DNA of 64,000 nucleotides from a phage: the sequence record NC_101837.1, one strand, 5' to 3'. Within the stretch, counting starts at the first letter, position 1. Each line of letters begins with the position of its first letter. Positions 11,023 through 33,338 of the stretch are shown in pieces. The notes beneath the pieces were generated by a model. That model ran no database searches and was not told the origin of the DNA. It saw only the letters and a list, made by a program, of their open reading frames with translations. The position numbers and the translations under genes are program-made.

Positions 11023-11934
11023 TTATTTTCCGTTAACTTTGTTGTAGTTTCCCTGCTCAGATGGGACTATGGTAGAAGGTCTTCCATATTCCTGATAATA
11101 CCAATCCGCAGCAGATTGAGTAACACCGTTTTCATCCGTCCACATCATAGATTTGTAGGGCTGCCACTCTTCTGCGGCATTTGTGGATGCAGTGTCTGCA
11201 AATGCCCCTGTGTCCCTCTTGTTACCTACGTTACTGCCATTCTTACAGTCGTTGACAGCACCTTTTTGCTGGGTCTTGCCTACTTTCTTAGGGTTGCTGT
11301 ATACAGTTGCATTAACAACCTTGTTCAAGTAGAATGTGCGGAACTCTGTAAGTTCTACATCAAACACCATCGCAGCACCTTCACCAACAGACTTGTTGGC
11401 AGAAAGGCTGGTTATGATGTAGTTCTCAAGGAGTCTCTCCTCGGTAACCAAAGAAACCAACTGGCGCTTATTAATGATCTCAGTCAAAGCCTCCAGTGCA
11501 GCGCCTGGTCGCATAGACGCTGCAGGGTTTTTAGAGTCAGTATTCCTGTCAATGTAGTTTTGCTCATAGATTATATGTGGTGATGTATTTACCCTACCAG
11601 TAAAAGAAAATACACCATCTTTAATTACAGCGTGGTCTGACAGGGTAGATTTATCTTCCACCGCAAACCCAGTCTTATCAACAGAATGTTTGAAAGAGTA
11701 ATTCTCAACCTGATCGAAGATGATGGCAAGATCGTTAGTAAAGTTTTTACCCTTCATCTCCGTATTGCGACCACCATAGTTAAGACCGCTGACAAACATA
11801 GTGTACTTTACATCGCTTTCAGTTTGCTGTTCTGCCTTTTCAGCCTTTGGAGATTTAACCTCTTGAGGCTTGTACAGGTCTTTTTCATCAACTATATTGC
11901 TTGGCATAACCTCTCCAGGACACTCCGATACCAT
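11023..11934 (-). CDS. hypothetical tail protein
   Basis: 303-aa ORF immediately downstream of tape measure gene and its terminator. Confidence 0.45.
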   Translation of the reverse strand: MVSECPGEVMPSNIVDEKDLYKPQEVKSPKAEKAEQQTESDVKYTMFVSGLNYGGRNTEMKGKNFTNDLAIIFDQVENYSFKHSVDKTGFAVEDKSTLSDHAVIKDGVFSFTGRVNTSPHIIYEQNYIDRNTDSKNPAASMRPGAALEALTEIINKRQLVSLVTEERLLENYIITSLSANKSVGEGAAMVFDVELTEFRTFYLNKVVNATVYSNPKKVGKTQQKGAVNDCKNGSNVGNKRDTGAFADTASTNAAEEWQPYKSMMWTDENGVTQSAADWYYQEYGRPSTIVPSEQGNYNKVNGK

Positions 11935-12011: not shown

Positions 12012-14348
12012 TTACCAAAGGTCGGTAGACATGAAGTTGATATCTTTATTGTTCTCCCACTCAAGTTTTGCATCAAATATTTTGTTAAACTCACCCTCAT
12101 CTATTGAAATCGTGATTTTCCCATCACTGATCTCTAAAGGTAGCATTTCCATAGTTCTTAATTGAGAGGCAAAACCAGGGCCACCTGGCAACGGAAGAGT
12201 CCCGCCCGGTAAGGTGTCCAAAGGATTAACAAATCCGTTACCTCCCGATATGATATCTTTGCGAATCATATCGCTGATAGTATCCAGCTGCTGATTTCTT
12301 TCACTTAGTGGGTTGTAACGGTCATTAAATAATTCCCCGGCGCTTAGTATTGTACCGATAATGCCCAGCTTACCGAGCAGACCAACTTTGCCACCAGGTG
12401 TCTTGAGGCCACCCCCACCTTTTCCTGCCGGAGCTCCACCACCAGATCCTTCTGTAGTAGCGGCACCTGCTACTCCAGCTGCACCCCTTAGAGAGCTAAG
12501 GAATTTAAAGGTTTTTACAAGCATAGATGCCATGACAAAACCTTTTGTTAGGGCGTTGACGACCAGCATGATGGCAGCAGCAAACCCTGCCCATTTAGCA
12601 TAGCTAAAGGTGTCATGAAGCTCTTCAGAATATTCCTTCGTCTTAGCTGTTATGAACCCCCATTTAATCCCCCATTCAAGGAAAAACATGCGGATCTTGA
12701 CTATAGTGTTGTTCAGTTCACCAACTACCCAGTTAAGGCCTCTCACAAACCCGCTAACAAAATCACCAGAGGCATCCCACACAAATTGCAGAGTCTCACC
12801 AGTGCGGATTAGTGTATAATAGAACTCTGTTAGTTCGTCAGACCAACGGGTGAACAGTTTCTGACGAGTCAGTTCGATAAAGGTTTTCAGTCTGTTTTCT
12901 GCCAGCACGTTAGACTTCTGCATTCTTTCATAACCAGCTGCAGATGCCTCGTTCATGTACTTAGCCACATACTTCATGATCTTGGCTGTTTTAACCTCAC
13001 CTTTCTTCATCATGTCCATGAACTGATCCATGGAGAGTTCAGAAAGACCAAAAGCCTCTTTGGTGGCCTTAATAAAAGGTTCGTATGCACCAGGCAATGC
13101 TTCAGCAAGTTGTTGCTTCAGTTCTTCGGACATTACCTGTCCTTTCCCGAGCATCTGTTGGATTGCCATAATACCGCGCTGGTATTTTACCTCATCGGCA
13201 CCATAAGCAGCAGCATACTGGGAGTATGCAGAAAACAGCTCATGCACTTCCTGATTTGTCATCTGGTTTTTGGCGTTTACCGACATCTGGGCGTAACCTT
13301 GAAGACCAGATTTGAGATCAAAACCAAGACGCATAGCCTCTTGCTGGACAAACGCAACCTCACTGTTGGCTTTGTTTGGATCTCCAGTGACAGCAGTAAG
13401 AGCAGCACTTGCCCCCTCCATCATGTGACCGGATCTGTTAACCGCAGCAAATCCAGAAAAAGCTGTATACGCAGCTGTTGCATTAATAACAGATCTACGT
13501 AAGTCTCTCATGGCATCGCCTAGTGTAAGCGTTTGGCTGGTGGCGCTTTTAAACCCAGACTGCAGCGCTGACAGGTGGGCGTTAAAGGTTGACTTCTTCA
13601 TCTCCCCGCGAGCAAACCTGGACTCTAACTCTGAGTATCCTGGCAAGCTTCCACGGAATCCGGCCCCATACTTGGCAGAAAGTCTTATCGCGGAGTTGTA
13701 GAGGTGGGTTCTCCTTGCCTCACGATCCGACATAAGCCTATTATCCATACCAGCTTTACTGTCTCTTCTTAGCTGTCTATGATAACGATTCATAGCGGCT
13801 GTCTGAGCTTTCACAAGGTTAGGGTCGGAAGCCACACCACCCATATTAGGGTTACCTGGGATATATTTGAAAGATTTGGCATTAGCCAAAACTCTTGCCT
13901 TAGGTGCCTTATAACCGCCGTAAGACACTGGTGCAGATTTGGCAGCCTTTTTGGCCTCTTTAGCTTGCTGCTGGTAGAACTTACGCATCCTAGCCATTTC
14001 TGGATTTTTAGCGGTAAGATTACCTACAGCTTGTTTACGTCTCGCATTCTCCCTACGTTCTATTGCAGCCCTTACTGCAGCCTCTTTCTTGGCCTGTGCT
14101 ACGCTCTCTCTGTGCAGTTTAGCATTTGCCTGAGATTGCTGTCTGGCAACCCGCTGCATTGTCTGCTGGGTTTTAACAGCTACCGCCTGCCATCTACTCA
14201 TGGGGTTGGCTGAGTTAAAATCCTCGCCCAGTTTCCTGAACTCCCTCCCAATACTGCGAATTTTCTCTACAGCTTTTTTGTAGGAGGAGTTCTCTATCTC
14301 AAAGCCAATCTTGTTGACTGTTGTGGCAACTATTTTGTTTGTAGCCAT
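12012..14348 (-). CDS. tail tape measure protein
   Basis: 778 aa, long predicted coiled-coil N-terminal half, Gly-rich segment (GAAGVAGAATTEGSGGGAPAGKGGGG), positioned after chaperone pair. Confidence 0.7.
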   Translation of the reverse strand: MATNKIVATTVNKIGFEIENSSYKKAVEKIRSIGREFRKLGEDFNSANPMSRWQAVAVKTQQTMQRVARQQSQANAKLHRESVAQAKKEAAVRAAIERRENARRKQAVGNLTAKNPEMARMRKFYQQQAKEAKKAAKSAPVSYGGYKAPKARVLANAKSFKYIPGNPNMGGVASDPNLVKAQTAAMNRYHRQLRRDSKAGMDNRLMSDREARRTHLYNSAIRLSAKYGAGFRGSLPGYSELESRFARGEMKKSTFNAHLSALQSGFKSATSQTLTLGDAMRDLRRSVINATAAYTAFSGFAAVNRSGHMMEGASAALTAVTGDPNKANSEVAFVQQEAMRLGFDLKSGLQGYAQMSVNAKNQMTNQEVHELFSAYSQYAAAYGADEVKYQRGIMAIQQMLGKGQVMSEELKQQLAEALPGAYEPFIKATKEAFGLSELSMDQFMDMMKKGEVKTAKIMKYVAKYMNEASAAGYERMQKSNVLAENRLKTFIELTRQKLFTRWSDELTEFYYTLIRTGETLQFVWDASGDFVSGFVRGLNWVVGELNNTIVKIRMFFLEWGIKWGFITAKTKEYSEELHDTFSYAKWAGFAAAIMLVVNALTKGFVMASMLVKTFKFLSSLRGAAGVAGAATTEGSGGGAPAGKGGGGLKTPGGKVGLLGKLGIIGTILSAGELFNDRYNPLSERNQQLDTISDMIRKDIISGGNGFVNPLDTLPGGTLPLPGGPGFASQLRTMEMLPLEISDGKITISIDEGEFNKIFDAKLEWENNKDINFMSTDLW

Positions 14349-18217: not shown

Positions 18218-18694
18218 TTATTTTTGCTGTCCAATTTTAAAGGTTGCAGATTCCAGCAGCACATCGTAATGCCGCATAGCCTCGTTGAAGCCCTTCTCTT
18301 GTGCCCACTGCTCACTAACAGTAGGGTTACTAAACTGACCAGCCTCAATAACAAACTGGATAGCTTTGGCCCCTGTGTCCCCCATCTGCTTAAGAATAGC
18401 CTCTGCACTTGATCCTCTAGCCATAGCTCTCAACAATTTTTCTGTCAAGGTCTGTAGTTGAGTGCTGTGAAATGCAAAAGCTGTCTCCATGAAATTGCGA
18501 ACAGGCAGCCCGTTCCAACCGAAGTTGTGAATGGCTGCCAATGTTGCCATATTTAAGCCTGACGGGTGAGGTTCGTCATAAAAGCCGTAGGTTATTGTTT
18601 TACTTTCAAGTCTCACAAGTTCTTTGTAGAAGCGATCTAAACGCTTTAGGTTGAACCTTGTTTGACATTTAACCTTTAGCATTATATCCCTCAC
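18218..18694 (-). CDS. hypothetical head-tail joining region protein
   Basis: 158-aa ORF in structural block. Confidence 0.4.
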   Translation of the reverse strand: MRDIMLKVKCQTRFNLKRLDRFYKELVRLESKTITYGFYDEPHPSGLNMATLAAIHNFGWNGLPVRNFMETAFAFHSTQLQTLTEKLLRAMARGSSAEAILKQMGDTGAKAIQFVIEAGQFSNPTVSEQWAQEKGFNEAMRHYDVLLESATFKIGQQK

Positions 18695-28828: not shown

Positions 28829-29174
28829 GTTTCCTCCATTATCACGTGATAGGTGGATTTTATCATAGCAAATACTGATTGTCAAGTTCGCCGCAGGGTG
28901 GTATTCCCTGCGACTTGTCCAGCGTCCTGGACCAGCAAGACCCAACAAGTGGGTTACCAGAGGCCTATTACCCGCGCTTCGGCTCGACCTTGTTACAGGT
29001 TGGCTGGGGTCACATCGTCATGTGCTGGCTGCCCCTACCATTTTAAGTGTGGTGCACTATCAAGCCCTCTAAGGGGAACTCAGCCTTCTCCGAACCCTGT
29101 TTCAAAGCATCCAGAGATAAAGCCATCAAATTCATCTTTAAATTGGATATTCATCATGATACACGAAAACAACC

Positions 29175-29417
29175 TCATTGTAAAGCACAAATAAATAAAA
29201 CATACTTAATTTGTTTGTTATCAGGCTCAGGGTAGAAGTAGAAGATCTTGCTATCACCGATCTGAACACCACCATCCCAACAACATAGCCCATAACCTGT
29301 ATTCATACAAGCTAAGTCGTTGGCAAAATCTATTGCATCATCCAGTGCACGAAATTCACCTTCATCTTCTAAATAATCCTCATTCATGGAACGAAAAACG
29401 AGCTTAACCTTAAACAT
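29175..29417 (-). CDS. hypothetical protein
   Basis: 80-aa ORF, minus-strand small-gene array. Confidence 0.35.
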   Translation of the reverse strand: MFKVKLVFRSMNEDYLEDEGEFRALDDAIDFANDLACMNTGYGLCCWDGGVQIGDSKIFYFYPEPDNKQIKYVLFICALQ

Positions 29418-29493
29418 AGCATTACCTGTAGACCTCGTAAGTTAAAATTGCATCACATCATATTGCAGATCTTATCAGGTAACACTATTTTTG

Positions 29494-29703
29494 TCAACAG
29501 ATTCCGGCCTTATCCTTCCTGTCTGCGTATTCTTTAATCGCAACCTCATCTGCATTAGTGACCAGGTCTTCAAAGTAACTCTCAAGCTCCTCGTCAATGT
29601 CAGGAGACCAGCCCTTTTTCCTGTCAGTGTGAATCGCAGACTTGTTAAACTTAGTACAGTTCTTTGCTACCGGATTGTTCATTAAGCACCCCTCAGCGTT
29701 CAT
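29494..29703 (-). CDS. hypothetical protein
   Basis: 69-aa ORF overlapping stop of upstream gene. Confidence 0.35.
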   Translation of the reverse strand: MNAEGCLMNNPVAKNCTKFNKSAIHTDRKKGWSPDIDEELESYFEDLVTNADEVAIKEYADRKDKAGIC

Positions 29704-30271
29704 AGTAAATCTTATTTAACATTACCTCATCCTTTGCAGAAAGGATATCTAGATATGCATCACCGAATCTACCTGCAACAACCTCTGCATGATACATCAC
29801 TTCGTTAATATCGTCAAGAGTGATAACTGGATGACCGTATCTCTCTGAGTATTGTCTCAGAGTGCGATGTAGGGAGTCATCATCATAGGCAGACTTTTTA
29901 ATATCGCAAACACGACGAATAGCCTTGATGTCGAAAAACCCTGTACGATACCAACCAAGAAAAAGGTTTCGTGCAGTGTCAACATCTACATCAATACCAT
30001 TAAGAACCTTATCTACAAGATAGCTGTCATCCTTTGGACCAGCTTCCTTAGTGCGAATGTAGTTGCCATCTTTTCCAGGTGACATCTCCTTCTCATCACC
30101 AACCTGCATGCCATCATTTGGCGGTGTTAGCCACTTATCCGGATGCTTACGATCACGAGCGTTAGAATGATTACGCTGGAAACCGGGCTTCCACTTGAAA
30201 GTTTTCTCCATCTGTTCTTCATTCTGATAACGTTTTGCAATCTTTTCACGGTCATCTTTGCGTGAACCCAT
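29693..30271 (-). CDS. hypothetical protein
   Basis: 192-aa ORF; first gene downstream of the long noncoding region 30272-30931. Confidence 0.45.
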   Translation of the reverse strand: MGSRKDDREKIAKRYQNEEQMEKTFKWKPGFQRNHSNARDRKHPDKWLTPPNDGMQVGDEKEMSPGKDGNYIRTKEAGPKDDSYLVDKVLNGIDVDVDTARNLFLGWYRTGFFDIKAIRRVCDIKKSAYDDDSLHRTLRQYSERYGHPVITLDDINEVMYHAEVVAGRFGDAYLDILSAKDEVMLNKIYYER

Positions 30272-30774
30272 AGCTGCCTCCTCTTCAAGTTATAGAAAAA
30301 CTCACTGTATCGCTTTGTAACGAGCTTTTCTATCAAACTGGTGCGATTGCATTACCTGGTATAGTTTATATAGCTGTGGAGCGATTTAGGGGCCTTCTTG
30401 TCAGTTTCCACACATAAACTTCATCCAAGCTCGCGCGGGAGACTCTCAACCGACTCCTTACGGCGCTGGCAAGCTTTCGTCGGTGGTCCACATCAGTGCT
30501 CGGCCTTTGGCCTGCGCTATCGCTTCGCTCCCACACATGTTAACAGACCTGCATGTATGAACTTCTGTTATTGTGTGCACCAAGGAGGCCCGGCATCTCG
30601 CCCCTCGTAGGCGAGTGCCAATGAAGGGCCGACACTGCCCATAGTAAGTAATAAATTTAAAACATGGTACTTAGGATCTAGTATATTCTACATAAGTTAA
30701 GTATATGTACTTAGTACCATAAGTACTAGATCTTTTATTTTTTATTATTTAGTTATTTTAGTTATATTCTTTAT

Positions 30775-30857
30775 GTGTCCGTATCACGGACAGTTAGTGT
30801 CCGTATTACGGGCAGATGTGTCCGCGTGACGGACAGTAGTGTCCGTATCACGGACAG
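30775..30857. repeat. array of four tandem 19-bp palindromic iterons (GTGTCCGTATCACGGACAG consensus), 21-22 bp period
   Basis: Copies at 30775, 30797, 30818, 30839; each an inverted repeat TGTCCGT-N3-ACGGACA; flanked upstream by AT-rich palindrome-containing tract 30651-30774. Confidence 0.85.
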
Positions 30858-30931
30858 TTAATAGTATCCGTTCCATGACGAACATAAAACATACGAATCC
30901 TTATAGTACAGATATTTAAGTTTTTACTGGT

Positions 30932-31282
30932 CTAACCAGTTGTTGACATCCGAATAACTTCTTCTGGTGGCAAAACTTTGGAAAATGTGCATCTTTTACC
31001 TCTCCCTTGTGTGGATGTTTCAACCACTCCTGCACATTCTAAAGTTTTAACGCACGCTGCTGCTTTTGTTTTCTTTATCCCAACATCTGCTGCAATTTTC
31101 CTTGTGCTTGGTGTGAAGCGTGAATTTCCTCCAAGCTTATACCAGTTGTGCAGGTAGCAGTATACGATCTTGTCATACAAGTCAAGAACAACAACCTCTC
31201 CAGTTGTGTCATTCAAAACTTTTGACATAGATAGTATTTCAAGGGGGACTTTAAGATATAGCAGCTTATCCCCATCTTTCAT
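30932..31282 (-). CDS. putative helix-turn-helix DNA-binding protein
   Basis: 116 aa; HTH-like segment TRKIAADVGIKKTKAAACVKTLECAGVV; stop lies ~75 bp from iteron array. Confidence 0.45.
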   Translation of the reverse strand: MKDGDKLLYLKVPLEILSMSKVLNDTTGEVVVLDLYDKIVYCYLHNWYKLGGNSRFTPSTRKIAADVGIKKTKAAACVKTLECAGVVETSTQGRGKRCTFSKVLPPEEVIRMSTTG

Positions 31283-31329: not shown

Positions 31330-31884
31330 TTACTCCCTGCTGTCAATATCAAAACTCATTGCAATACGGTATGCCTCTTCTAATGGTAAGAGTCTTCCCC
31401 ACACATCCCAACCGACATCAAGCTGCCTGCCAAACAACTGTTGTGTGGTTCCGTGAGCATGACCGAACAGTTGGACTGATCCGTGAGGCTTTCTGTTCCA
31501 CTTTGCAAACTGGTAATGGCTCATACAGATCAAATTCTTGTTGTGGCGAAGCTCGTAATAATCTACAACCTCATGACCGAACTCTTTCACAATTCTGACA
31601 GTCGTCCTTGTGTCATGGTTGCCACGAACAAGAATAATATGTCCGTTCAACATATTTAGAATATCTGGAAGTAAGTTGTTGATATTCTTATCATTAGTGC
31701 ACGCAATATCTCCCAAGTGGAACACAGTGTCTGCAGGTGACACAACAGAGTTCCACTCGGCGATGATTCCCGCATTCATACTGTCAAGATTGTGATCATA
31801 CTGAGATCTGTGTTTTTGACATGAATCAAACTCCATGACCCGCTGGTGGAGAAAGTGTGTGTCGCTTGTTACAAAGTATTTCAT
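31330..31884 (-). CDS. calcineurin-like metallophosphoesterase (candidate RNA 3'-phosphatase/cyclic phosphodiesterase)
   Basis: Motifs SDTHF (DxH), GDIA (GDxx), GNHD (GNH[DE]); start at internal ATG 31884 with GAGGA RBS just after stop of upstream gene. Confidence 0.6.
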   Translation of the reverse strand: MKYFVTSDTHFLHQRVMEFDSCQKHRSQYDHNLDSMNAGIIAEWNSVVSPADTVFHLGDIACTNDKNINNLLPDILNMLNGHIILVRGNHDTRTTVRIVKEFGHEVVDYYELRHNKNLICMSHYQFAKWNRKPHGSVQLFGHAHGTTQQLFGRQLDVGWDVWGRLLPLEEAYRIAMSFDIDSRE

Positions 31885-31891
31885 ACATTCC

Positions 31892-32302
31892 TCATTTAAG
31901 TTTAATGCAGTTTTTAAGCTGGCGTTCCATACGATCCACAACCTTGTCTGGAACATCATGAATGCTTTTATTACCGTGGCGGTTTTCAACCACGATCACG
32001 GTATAACTATACCCATGACTGATTGCCATGTCAACATATTCCTGCACATGTTTTTCTTTTGTAAACGTATTACTTACCACGATACGGTCGTATCCCATAC
32101 GCATCATATCTTCTACGTTATCTTTGCACCATTTTGCTGCGAGTGTTACTTTACTTGCATCCCAGTTGTAATTGCCGTCATCGTCATACCAGAACATGTC
32201 GTTCTCAAAATGTGGATACAGACCCTCTAAAGATAGCGCATTTGCCAGTGTTGATTTGCCAGACCCTGGTAGACCACGCACGATATATAGCATTTTAGAC
32301 AT
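31892..32302 (-). CDS. P-loop polynucleotide kinase-like protein
   Basis: Walker A GLPGSGKST; start at ATG 32302 preceded by GGAGGG; kinase-domain-sized; adjacent to phosphoesterase and divergent from RNA ligase. Confidence 0.55.
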   Translation of the reverse strand: MSKMLYIVRGLPGSGKSTLANALSLEGLYPHFENDMFWYDDDGNYNWDASKVTLAAKWCKDNVEDMMRMGYDRIVVSNTFTKEKHVQEYVDMAISHGYSYTVIVVENRHGNKSIHDVPDKVVDRMERQLKNCIKLK

Positions 32303-32402
32303 AGTGACCCTCCGTTTTAATTTCAACGGTAGTATACCTAACTGTTTTGTTAATTTCAAGTGTTGACACTAGGTTATTTGTGTGGCAGGATAGACTGACA
32401 AA

Positions 32403-33338
32403 ATGACAAATGAGGAACATATAATGAAGTATTTTAATGCAGACGACCTAGTTGACAAAGGTCTTGTAACCAGTAGGTATTACCCAGATCTCGGGTTAAA
32501 GATCTATAAATATGCTAGAAAAGTATTTTACAACAATTTATGGCATTTGTCCCCTCGTTTACTGGAGTGCCGAGGCATTGTTGTAGGTAATGAAGGAAAT
32601 GTTGTGGCATGGCCCTTCACAAAAGTGTTTAACTTGGGAGAAAACTCCACCAACCTGCCTGACAATAAGCTTGTGACTGCGGTAGAGAAAAAGAACGGAT
32701 TCCTTGGTGTGGTATCATCTCATAAAGGTGACCTATTGTTCTCAACAACCGGGTCTCTTGATTCTCCATATTGTAACCTTGCAAAGGAAACCATCCAAGA
32801 GCAATGTGGTAATTTAGATCTTATCAAGAAGGTTATGGGCAATGAAAACATGACATTCATGTTTGAAATTTGTCACCCTTCAGATCCGCATATTGTTCAA
32901 GAAGACCATGGCGCATATTTGATAGGTTGCAGATATAATGATTCTGGAATAATGCTACCAGAAGCAGCTTTAGATGGGATTGCCAAATACCTTGGTGCAA
33001 AACGTCCTCACACTGTGCGTGAAATCCCGTTCAGCTATGCAAAAGAATTAGCCGCAGAAACAAGGGGCGAAGGGTATATGATCCGTAAGCCTTACTACCC
33101 TTATGACCTGCAGCTGAAGATCAAGTCTCCATACTACCTGGCACGGAAGGCCGTAATGAGGGGTAAAGCTTGGAAGATTTGGGATGATGATATCTTTAAA
33201 CGTGTTGACGAAGAGTTTTACGGCATGGTAAACTTCATTCGTAACAATTACACAGAAGATGTGTGGAACTGCCTCCTGGAGCAGGAACGCCGTGAGATAC
33301 TTGACTGCTATTTCCACAACGAGGACTATATGCAATGA
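32403..33338 (+). CDS. RNA ligase, T4 Rnl1-like
   Basis: Segments LLECRGIVV, KVFNLGEN and VEKKNGFLG (Kx[DN]G nucleotidyl-transferase motif I) match my recollection of T4 RnlA; 311 aa. Confidence 0.65.
   Translation: MTNEEHIMKYFNADDLVDKGLVTSRYYPDLGLKIYKYARKVFYNNLWHLSPRLLECRGIVVGNEGNVVAWPFTKVFNLGENSTNLPDNKLVTAVEKKNGFLGVVSSHKGDLLFSTTGSLDSPYCNLAKETIQEQCGNLDLIKKVMGNENMTFMFEICHPSDPHIVQEDHGAYLIGCRYNDSGIMLPEAALDGIAKYLGAKRPHTVREIPFSYAKELAAETRGEGYMIRKPYYPYDLQLKIKSPYYLARKAVMRGKAWKIWDDDIFKRVDEEFYGMVNFIRNNYTEDVWNCLLEQERREILDCYFHNEDYMQ

Follow-up and report, generated by a model that had tools for sequence, protein, structure and literature searches.

In RK2 oriV, iterons are accompanied by an AT-rich region and a GC-rich region, while lambda ori combines four iterons, an AT-rich tract and a palindrome. 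Transcripts take part in other origins: ColE1 depends on the RNA II preprimer, T4 oriF and oriG form R-loops, and at T4 oriE (repEA/repEB) early transcripts prime beside iterons. The single-strand initiation (ssi) or primosome-assembly signals of phage G4, phiX174 and many plasmids are about 50-150 nt long and act as DNA. A comparable locus is described here for the minus strand of a Vequintavirus (rV5-like) genome (sequence record NC_101837.1), of which one stretch of 64,000 nucleotides, the window, was analysed. Between an AT-rich tract, which follows four iterons, and the gene of a 192-amino-acid (192-aa) protein lies a noncoding element, about 295 nt long. Conservation of its core is far beyond the neutral rate, base pairing in the single strand is, judging from compensatory changes, under selection, and the core recurs in satellite-like plasmids of E. 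coli. The element is tentatively read as the folded, invariant part of an iteron-type origin that would act as RNA, in the form of a primer or an R-loop, or else as a priming signal.

With RK2 oriV and lambda ori the locus shares the order of repeats, AT-rich tract and GC-rich or palindromic segment, with an initiator gene (here a candidate) nearby. The flank, however, consists of about 295 nt with several compensated hairpins and is common to replicons with unrelated iterons; DnaA boxes and sequence similarity to either origin are lacking, and the locus is a candidate origin. The likeness to ColE1 and T4 lies in a structured transcript of several hundred nucleotides that would run through the origin region, with a G-rich RNA-like strand, and T4 oriE likewise brings iterons, small rep genes and an early transcript together. 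In contrast to these systems, the element shows no similarity to RNA I or RNA II and no Rfam match, no dedicated promoter was found for it, and it is located downstream of the AT-rich tract instead of ending in the tract. Like ssi signals, as these are described, it has strand-specific clusters of stable hairpins beside the putative origin that might be recognised single-stranded, and it contains GCGAAGC, a sequence known for very stable mini-hairpins; it is longer than ssi signals, however, and is found with UUCG loops typical of RNA.

The local genes are encoded on the minus strand, and the order runs from a gene for a 116-aa helix-turn-helix protein through the iterons, the AT-rich tract and a GC-rich island to the 192-aa gene, small genes, a second GC-rich gap and a tRNA cluster (Table 1). 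A preliminary description of this DNA had reported a GC-rich noncoding island at 30272-30650, part of a noncoding region of roughly 660 bp, had singled out a CTCGCC-CCTCGTA-GGCGAG hairpin, and had proposed either a noncoding RNA (ncRNA) or structured element, or a long structured leader for the 29693..30271 operon, with comparative alignment and covariance and ribozyme scans as checks. The noncoding region is real and contains the four iterons and the AT-rich tract, and the hairpin is found at 30598-30616, as the tip of a larger 15-bp hairpin (30630-30587). The GC richness holds for 30400-30650 (54-60%, with a background of about 40%) and not for the gene-proximal part at 30250-30400 (42-46%); GC falls to 21-26% at 30650-30799. 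Plus-strand GC skew of -0.15 to -0.20 over 30400-30600 makes the RNA-sense (minus) strand G-rich, which would favour R-loops. The description of the island as noncoding is borne out: no frame of 30272-30931 carries a coding signal, the open reading frames (ORFs) of 30272-30650 are short (31 aa and 56 aa on the minus strand, 70 aa on the plus strand), an excess of synonymous changes was found in no frame on either strand across 15 homologues (21-33 synonymous vs 86-100 nonsynonymous), and all six frames carry at least three stops over the element in the alignment of these homologues.

Table 1. Features of the locus, with identity between the window's clade and its sister clade (positions refer to the window unless a contig is named)
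Feature	Position	Strand	Between-clade identity	Description
Conserved element proper	30341..30635 (~295 nt)	-		Similarity to L004/L019 begins here; plasmid-shared sequence inside; extent from alignments and nhmmer matches
Hairpin A	30587..30630	-	94% (block)	GGCCC / GGCA / CUCGCC-loop-GGCGAG / UGCC / GGGCC, 15 bp
CCUCC	30584..30588	-		Single-stranded, invariant; adjoins hairpin A on the 3' side; complement of GGAGG in the ribosome-binding site farther downstream
Variable hairpin 2	30532..30577	-	64-66%	CACACA..AACAG-loop-CUGUU..UGUGUG
Core B	30431..30536	-	92-93%	GUGUGGGAG ... AAUGUGGACC ... core helix ... GAGUCUCCCGCGCG; most conserved block
Core helix	30449..30484	-		ACCGAC/GUCGGU (30479-30484 with 30449-30454)
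Variable spacer	30345..30430	-	61-64%	Invariant CCUAAAU (30384-30390) and second UGUGUGG copy
Long 3' hairpin, phage-specific	30286..30341	-	89-92% (with ribosome-binding site)	~21 bp with bulge, just upstream of the ribosome-binding site
Ribosome-binding site of the 192-aa gene	30277..30283	-		GAGGAGG; ATG at 30271-30269
192-aa ORFan gene	29693..30271	-	69% (3rd codon positions); 93-94% (2nd codon positions)	Immediately downstream of the island
AT-rich tract	30636..30774	.		GC 0.21-0.26; inverted repeats; candidate DNA-unwinding element
Iterons (four, 21-22 nt)	30775..30860	.		Palindrome TGTCCGTATCACGGACA in each
116-aa winged-helix protein	30932..31282	-		Candidate iteron-binding initiator
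Phosphoesterase, polynucleotide kinase and RNA ligase genes	31330-33338			Upstream of the 116-aa gene
Second GC-rich gap	~28886-29080	minus
tRNA cluster	27580-28392
Sister-clade exchanged module	L004 1319-1750 and 1749-1878; L019 1807-2238

The 751 bases around the island match Escherichia phage vB_EcoM_HdK5 at 100% identity and 118 Vequintavirus records at 80-100%, and the element was found in all 118 of these. Constraint is best seen against a sister clade known only from metagenome and IMG/VR contigs (L004 and L019), whose 192-aa protein is 83% identical to that of the window. Similarity between the window and these contigs starts abruptly at GUGUCGGCCC (window 30635), the 5' edge of the element, and extends to the start codon of the 192-aa gene; upstream of the edge the sequence is wholly replaced, so that the upstream protein, the iterons and the AT-rich stretch all differ. 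Identities of the hairpin A block, core B and the 3' hairpin with its ribosome-binding site approach the second-codon level of the 192-aa gene, so that the constraint on these three blocks is about that on positions which determine the protein. The comparative alignment thus shows strong conservation among relatives, the core reaching 92-94% with third positions at 69%. The conserved unit stops about 60 nt short of the hairpin and ribosome-binding site that belong to the 192-aa gene itself.

The distribution is narrow. In blastn searches of 50,697 phage records with the phage or the plasmid version, matches were confined to Vequintavirus; the syntenic regions of Mydovirus, Seunavirus, Justusliebigvirus and another member of Stephanstirmvirinae have a different gene order and gave no nhmmer or covariance-model match. 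Pattern scans of IMG/VR returned one contig only, and a metagenome scan four further phage copies; a genome pattern scan yielded only chance 20-mers in GC-rich bacteria, its pattern beginning with GAC and being blind to the plasmid variant (GCC). Among the 4227 models of Rfam 15, tRNAs were the sole matches in the whole window at gathering thresholds, and in a permissive scan of 28800-31000 the best overlap was rli43 (21.9 bits vs a threshold of 100), located mostly in the AT-rich tract. The covariance scans were thus empty at the element, and a hammerhead-like CUGAUG...GAAA motif was rejected as its core bases are altered in the L004 clade. The element is a candidate structured-RNA family absent from Rfam.

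Core B supplies part of the evidence for folding. Its core helix, ACCGAC/GUCGGU in the phages, corresponds to GCUGCC/GGCAGC in four plasmids, so that three of the six pairs are doubly changed between phage and plasmid (A-U to C-G, C-G to U-A, and A-U to G-C), and G.U intermediates occur in L004, L019, and Aya. The cells of the helix are 95% paired, with 23-66% over all nine pairs once the partner columns are slid, and the covariation score was reached by none of 500 shuffles. The helix closes a 24-nt loop (GAAAGCUUGCCAGCGCCGKAAGGA, 30455-30478). In pMB4926_4, the flanks AAUGUGGA and GAGUCUCCCGCGCG are kept, while the helix is swapped for GUCCGGAU/AUCCGGAC around a different loop (z -4.1). A small helix changes from GGCC/GGCC in the phages to AGCC/GGCU in the plasmids, and lineage-specific insertions of the plasmids form hairpins, of which two have a C(UUCG)G loop. 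Because of the compensatory changes, the helix swap and the hairpin-only insertions, base pairing in the single strand is best taken as being under selection, and the structured element or ncRNA of the preliminary description gains support. The minus (gene-sense) strand accommodates both the G.U intermediates and the U.G pairs of GUGUGGG/CCCGCGC, a possible closing helix.

Hairpin A has a minimum free energy (MFE) of -28.1 kcal/mol (z -3.0); its stems are invariant in 20 phage sequences and substitutions are confined to the loops. In the plasmid pCP020521 two pairs are changed on both sides, each from G-C to U-A, and the fold is kept (MFE -25.0 kcal/mol, z about -3.0). The adjacent CCUCC is paired with the ribosome-binding site in the MFE structure of the whole region; the 5-mer match alone is not significant. 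Variable hairpin 2 drifts in sequence at about the neutral rate and retains its hairpin potential: four of the 20 aligned phages have lost 18 nt here and still form a perfect 8-bp hairpin, and four plasmids carry an unrelated hairpin of about 10 bp (GCCUAAAGAG...CUCUUUAGGC) in its place, preceding UGUGUGGG. CCUAAAU of the spacer, as well as GCAAU, is present in all phages and plasmids. The long 3' hairpin has 15 bp that are invariant or altered only by G.U/G-C switches; no repeats of it were found elsewhere in the window, and the plasmids have a different, AU-rich hairpin at the equivalent place. RNAalifold recovers hairpin A, a multi-hairpin core and the long 3' hairpin from the phages. The z-scores of the whole-region MFE are modest (-2.2 for the minus strand, -1.3 for the plus strand), and single isolates show uncompensated changes in two small hairpins. 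All-against-all column covariation within the phages was swamped by their two-clade phylogeny and was set aside.

Two further motifs occur within the element. GUGGACCAC (window 30481-30489) is self-complementary around one central base, which makes a hairpin impossible; in L004 it becomes GCGGGCCGC with the symmetry retained, as would be expected if it paired between molecules (as a dimer) or took part in two separate long-range helices. (U)GUGUGG(G) lies on the sense strand between hairpins (30532-30537, 30487-30491, and 30409-30414); phages have 2-3 copies and plasmids 3-4 or more. A protein might bind at each of these copies, or they could be alternative partners of the single CCCGCGC.

Sensitive blastn against E. 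coli genomes and plasmids yielded matches of about 85% to parts of the element in circular E. coli plasmids of 13.2-13.7 kb (L035, L037, L038, L039, and L040, all whole plasmids) and in a 39.6-kb trimer of such a unit (L036). A covariance model of the core-helix part (R1, window 30427-30502) scores 100 bits for the window, 89.6-94.5 for five plasmids and 48.5 for pMB4926, and finds nothing in loci from other genera. The plasmids encode a major capsid protein, helix-turn-helix (winged-helix) proteins and three proteins with counterparts in the window: the baseplate protein shares 50% identity with the product of 11221-11844, a second protein 45% with that of 18254-18676, and the tape-measure protein 25% with that of 12618-14336. 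No terminase is among the annotated plasmid products. A 303-aa winged-helix protein, the initiator-like protein of the plasmids, matches PHROG 428 and 391 weakly, and BLASTP revealed no similarity between it and the 116-aa phage protein. The element homologue is located in an unannotated stretch of 2.2-2.9 kb, whose remaining 1.6 kb has no phage match, and the element core is the only noncoding sequence found common to plasmids and phages. About 1.4-1.5 kb of this stretch (L037 3006-4500, with equivalents in L035, L036, L038, and L040) is 85-96% conserved among the plasmids, has no annotated gene and gave no blastn match in phage records; a large RNA, a packaging region and missed genes are among the possibilities. 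Typing in PLSDB of the two plasmids looked up gave no replicon and only the label 'non-mobilizable'.

Judging from their gene content, the plasmids look like undescribed extrachromosomal satellites of rV5-like phages, and no paper presenting them as satellites was found in a literature search. P4 carries the cos site of P2, and PLE of Vibrio cholerae reportedly has its own RepA and iterons and uses the replisome of ICP1. The plasmids resemble these satellites in having helper-related structural genes and a helper-like noncoding sequence beside their own iterons and initiator. In contrast to the P2 cos site or a pac site, the sequence common to phages and plasmids shows single-strand folding, and the helper/satellite relation comes from gene content.

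The upstream context of the element is constant. The window, the L004/L019 clade and four plasmids all have the order iterons, AT-rich tract, element, with AT-rich stretches between iterons and element also in L004/L019 and the plasmids. Arrays comprise 4-6 iterons with a minimum spacing of 21-23 bp, and iteron sequence differs from carrier to carrier: L004 and four plasmids have five or six iterons at a minimum spacing of 21-23 nt, some gaps being wider, and each of the four plasmids has its own iteron sequence at 23-bp spacing directly upstream of the element. In pCP020521, three 23-nt repeats are located about 320-610 nt away from it. Tandem repeats at about two helical turns and an adjacent AT-rich region, as expected of an iteron origin, are thus both present; related records annotate the iterons merely as repeat_region. 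The AT-rich tract of the window has its own direct and inverted repeats on AGTAC/TAAGTAC at 30660-30745, unlike the iterons; they are absent from the L004 clade, where A/G-rich repeats occur instead.

The 116-aa protein encoded upstream of the iterons matches PHROG 12838 'replication initiation protein' (E 5e-80) and, weakly, PHROG 428, with Pfam HTH_36 and DUF6945 just below the cut-offs; some records label it 'replication initiation protein' and others 'transcriptional regulator'. An unrelated 143-aa protein (weak match to PHROG 8102 'replication initiation protein') replaces it in the sister clade, together with matching new iterons GATACATATTTGCATCAGAT, and an extra hairpin-rich segment of about 140 nt precedes the AT-rich tract there. 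The swap exchanges the module cleanly, and its boundary coincides exactly with the 5' end of the element.

An origin module could therefore be proposed in which an initiator protein acts on the iterons, the AT-rich tract unwinds, and the element forms the third part, on the minus strand; this reading is held at somewhat less than an even chance. Iterons and initiator would be exchangeable specificity parts, and the element the common part that meets shared machinery. The early leftward transcript would cross the iterons and the AT-rich tract, and the G-rich RNA of the element would fold into hairpin A and the multi-hairpin core with its invariant loops. This folded RNA might remain on the template as an R-loop or primer; alternatively, it might mark the start of priming or of helicase loading beside the opened AT-rich DNA, or the same strand, as unwound single-stranded DNA, might be the priming signal. 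The satellite-like plasmids would then combine their own iterons and initiator with the same core. The origin function, the action as RNA rather than DNA, and the priming are what we infer from the conserved, folded and constantly placed sequence. That it represents a previously undescribed 'origin RNA', or a cis RNA for replication or packaging, common to a virulent myovirus and plasmid satellites is a more specific claim and an unlikely one.

Several observations weigh against the origin module. Covariation stems essentially from one deep phage/plasmid split and comprises few independent events: within the phages (20 sequences, 62 proposed pairs) there are no two-sided changes, the helices never varying. 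The loop of the core helix, otherwise invariant, is missing from pMB4926_4, which shows that it is not essential everywhere. The minus-sense MFE is lower in six of seven sequences, yet the strand z-scores are ambiguous, and the terminator-like hairpins of the plasmids, together with a weak promoter, fit an antisense transcript. The plasmids persist without the phage, which means that a shared phage replisome is not required. The initiator assignment consists of a PHROG label and sub-threshold Pfam matches, and the iterons could be plain operators; the DnaA and integration host factor (IHF) motifs TTATCCACA (at most one mismatch), TTWTNCACA, and WATCAANNNNTTR were not found in the module, whether of the window, of L004 or of two plasmids. 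No Vequintavirus origin has been mapped, and the authors of the rV5 paper were unable to place one.

Alternatively, and possibly, if with less probability than an origin module, the element is a structured RNA for gene expression, a processed segment of the early transcript. It might be a stabilising 5' domain, a platform for processive antitermination or protein binding, or a device for translational control through CCUCC as an anti-ribosome-binding site; release by RNase III at the long 3' hairpin could be envisaged, with satellites copying the element to use helper regulation. Its place directly upstream of a gene, on the gene-sense strand, fits this explanation, as do the supported folding, the 21-bp hairpin (invariant) and ribosome-binding site that follow the element, the invariant CCUCC that is complementary to this site and pairs with it in the MFE structure, and the upstream promoters with no intervening terminator. 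For rV5, the published analysis predicts neither a promoter nor a terminator from P081 to P075; the element should therefore be within the early leftward transcript and be transcribed with the leftward early operon. Intrinsic terminators were called on neither strand of 30272-30650, the 3' hairpin included; the searches upstream of the element gave only weak, non-conserved promoter matches, and an antisense extended -10 (TGGTATAGT) was discarded as not conserved. Terminator-like hairpins of the plasmids occur only on the antisense strand, at the upstream edge of the element. The literature search found no Vequintavirus RNA-seq.

The 192-aa product of the downstream gene belongs to PHROG 12226 (unknown function), has no Pfam or PDB match, a poor AlphaFold2 model (predicted local distance difference test score of 48.7), and only three relatives among 1.84 billion representatives. 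A 50%-identical homologue has a 59-nt upstream gap and lacks the element, and in the plasmids a consensus-like sigma-70 promoter (TTGACA-17-TAAGAT) separates the element from the next, unrelated small genes. The long structured leader of the preliminary description is weakened by the end of the conserved unit short of the gene's own hairpin, and by this element-free homologue, the differing plasmid genes and the promoter downstream of the element, the last three of which also count against a role in gene expression at large; the consistent co-occurrence of gene and element, with a promoter upstream of the element, that a riboswitch or dedicated leader would show was not observed. The constant neighbour of the element is the iteron/AT-rich block, which the preliminary description had taken as no more than adjacent, and not the gene, and a role in gene expression leaves this position after iterons and AT-rich tract unexplained; no riboswitch, leader or antitermination family of Rfam matches either. 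RNase III processing hairpins are located between the early genes of phage T7, and the imperfect hairpin of about 20 bp at 30286-30341, immediately upstream of a ribosome-binding site in a presumably polycistronic early transcript, resembles them. The likeness is limited to this phage-specific hairpin, a candidate cleavage site, and does not reach the conserved core; the hairpin may serve for processing of the RNase III type or as a translational operator.

It is doubtful that the element is instead a double-stranded DNA site common to helper and satellite, such as pac for the small terminase with TGTGTGG as binding boxes. Such a site would account for plasmids that bear Vequintavirus-like baseplate and tape-measure genes, have no annotated terminase, and share with the phages this sole noncoding sequence, the other 1.6 kb being without phage match; GTGTGG also occurs 2-3 times on one strand. 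Compensatory changes, the helix swap and the hairpin-only insertions, however, point to single-strand folding and not to duplex recognition, and the spacing of the repeated motif differs by tens of bases among carriers. A pac site beside iterons, far from any identified terminase gene (the terminase gene itself was not located), would be unusual.

Improbable, too, is a trans-acting ncRNA, for example a decoy against RNA-targeting host defence or the RNA subunit of a phage ribonucleoprotein. The tRNA cluster and the polynucleotide kinase, phosphoesterase and RNA ligase genes in the neighbourhood are in keeping with it, the invariant loops suggest protein recognition, and a second conserved structured island is present at about 28886-29080. 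The element has, however, no promoter or terminator of its own that could be found, its homologues are limited to one phage genus and one plasmid family, and no link to any defence system emerged. As for small proteins, the hypothetical products annotated in BASEL-collection and other records (bas51_0223/0224) and several indels in multiples of three hardly offset the absence of synonymous excess, the stops in every frame, ORF boundaries that vary between homologues and the almost exclusively nonsynonymous open-frame changes between L004 and L019, and the region, in which the rV5 proteomics paper leaves ORFs unannotated, is very improbably coding.

The other GC-rich island of the locus (window 28886-29080, minus strand; L019 4190-4400; L004 4520-4730) is about 91% identical between the clades and has compensatory hairpins (GUCCAG...CUGGAC to GCUCAG...CUGAGC, and ACCCA...UGGGU to UCCCA...UGGGA). 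It is located just upstream of a consensus-like promoter (TTGACA-17-TAAAAT, rV5 P074) and has no Rfam match. A local alignment of the two islands scored no better than shuffles, and paralogy was rejected; the island is a second candidate structured RNA. Within the tRNA cluster, ARAGORN predicts a 99-nt tRNA with a 4-base anticodon at 27825-27923, annotated as tRNA-Lys (TTT) or tRNA-OTHER in related records, which may contain an intron or be otherwise unusual. Some database records also deserve mention. Eighteen 'Campylobacter phage' records (MG0656xx) are 97-99% identical to E. coli Vequintavirus genomes at the locus, and their host label is probably wrong. PLSDB record CP057073.1 (137,565 bp), deposited as an E. 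coli plasmid, matches the full-length element at 98.6% (102129-102495) and is as large as a Vequintavirus genome; its source may be a phage that the culture carried or was contaminated with.

As rV5-like phages are widely isolated, used in phage typing and considered for therapy, the locus provides a concrete origin candidate for them, composed of initiator, iterons, AT-rich tract and folded element. The plasmids point to a helper/satellite pair not described before, whose members would interact through the element as a putative cis site. If the 'origin RNA' were true, each replicon would owe its specificity to exchangeable iterons and initiators, a single folded RNA would connect these to common machinery, and the plasmids would be a new kind of extrachromosomal satellite, first picked out via an RNA.

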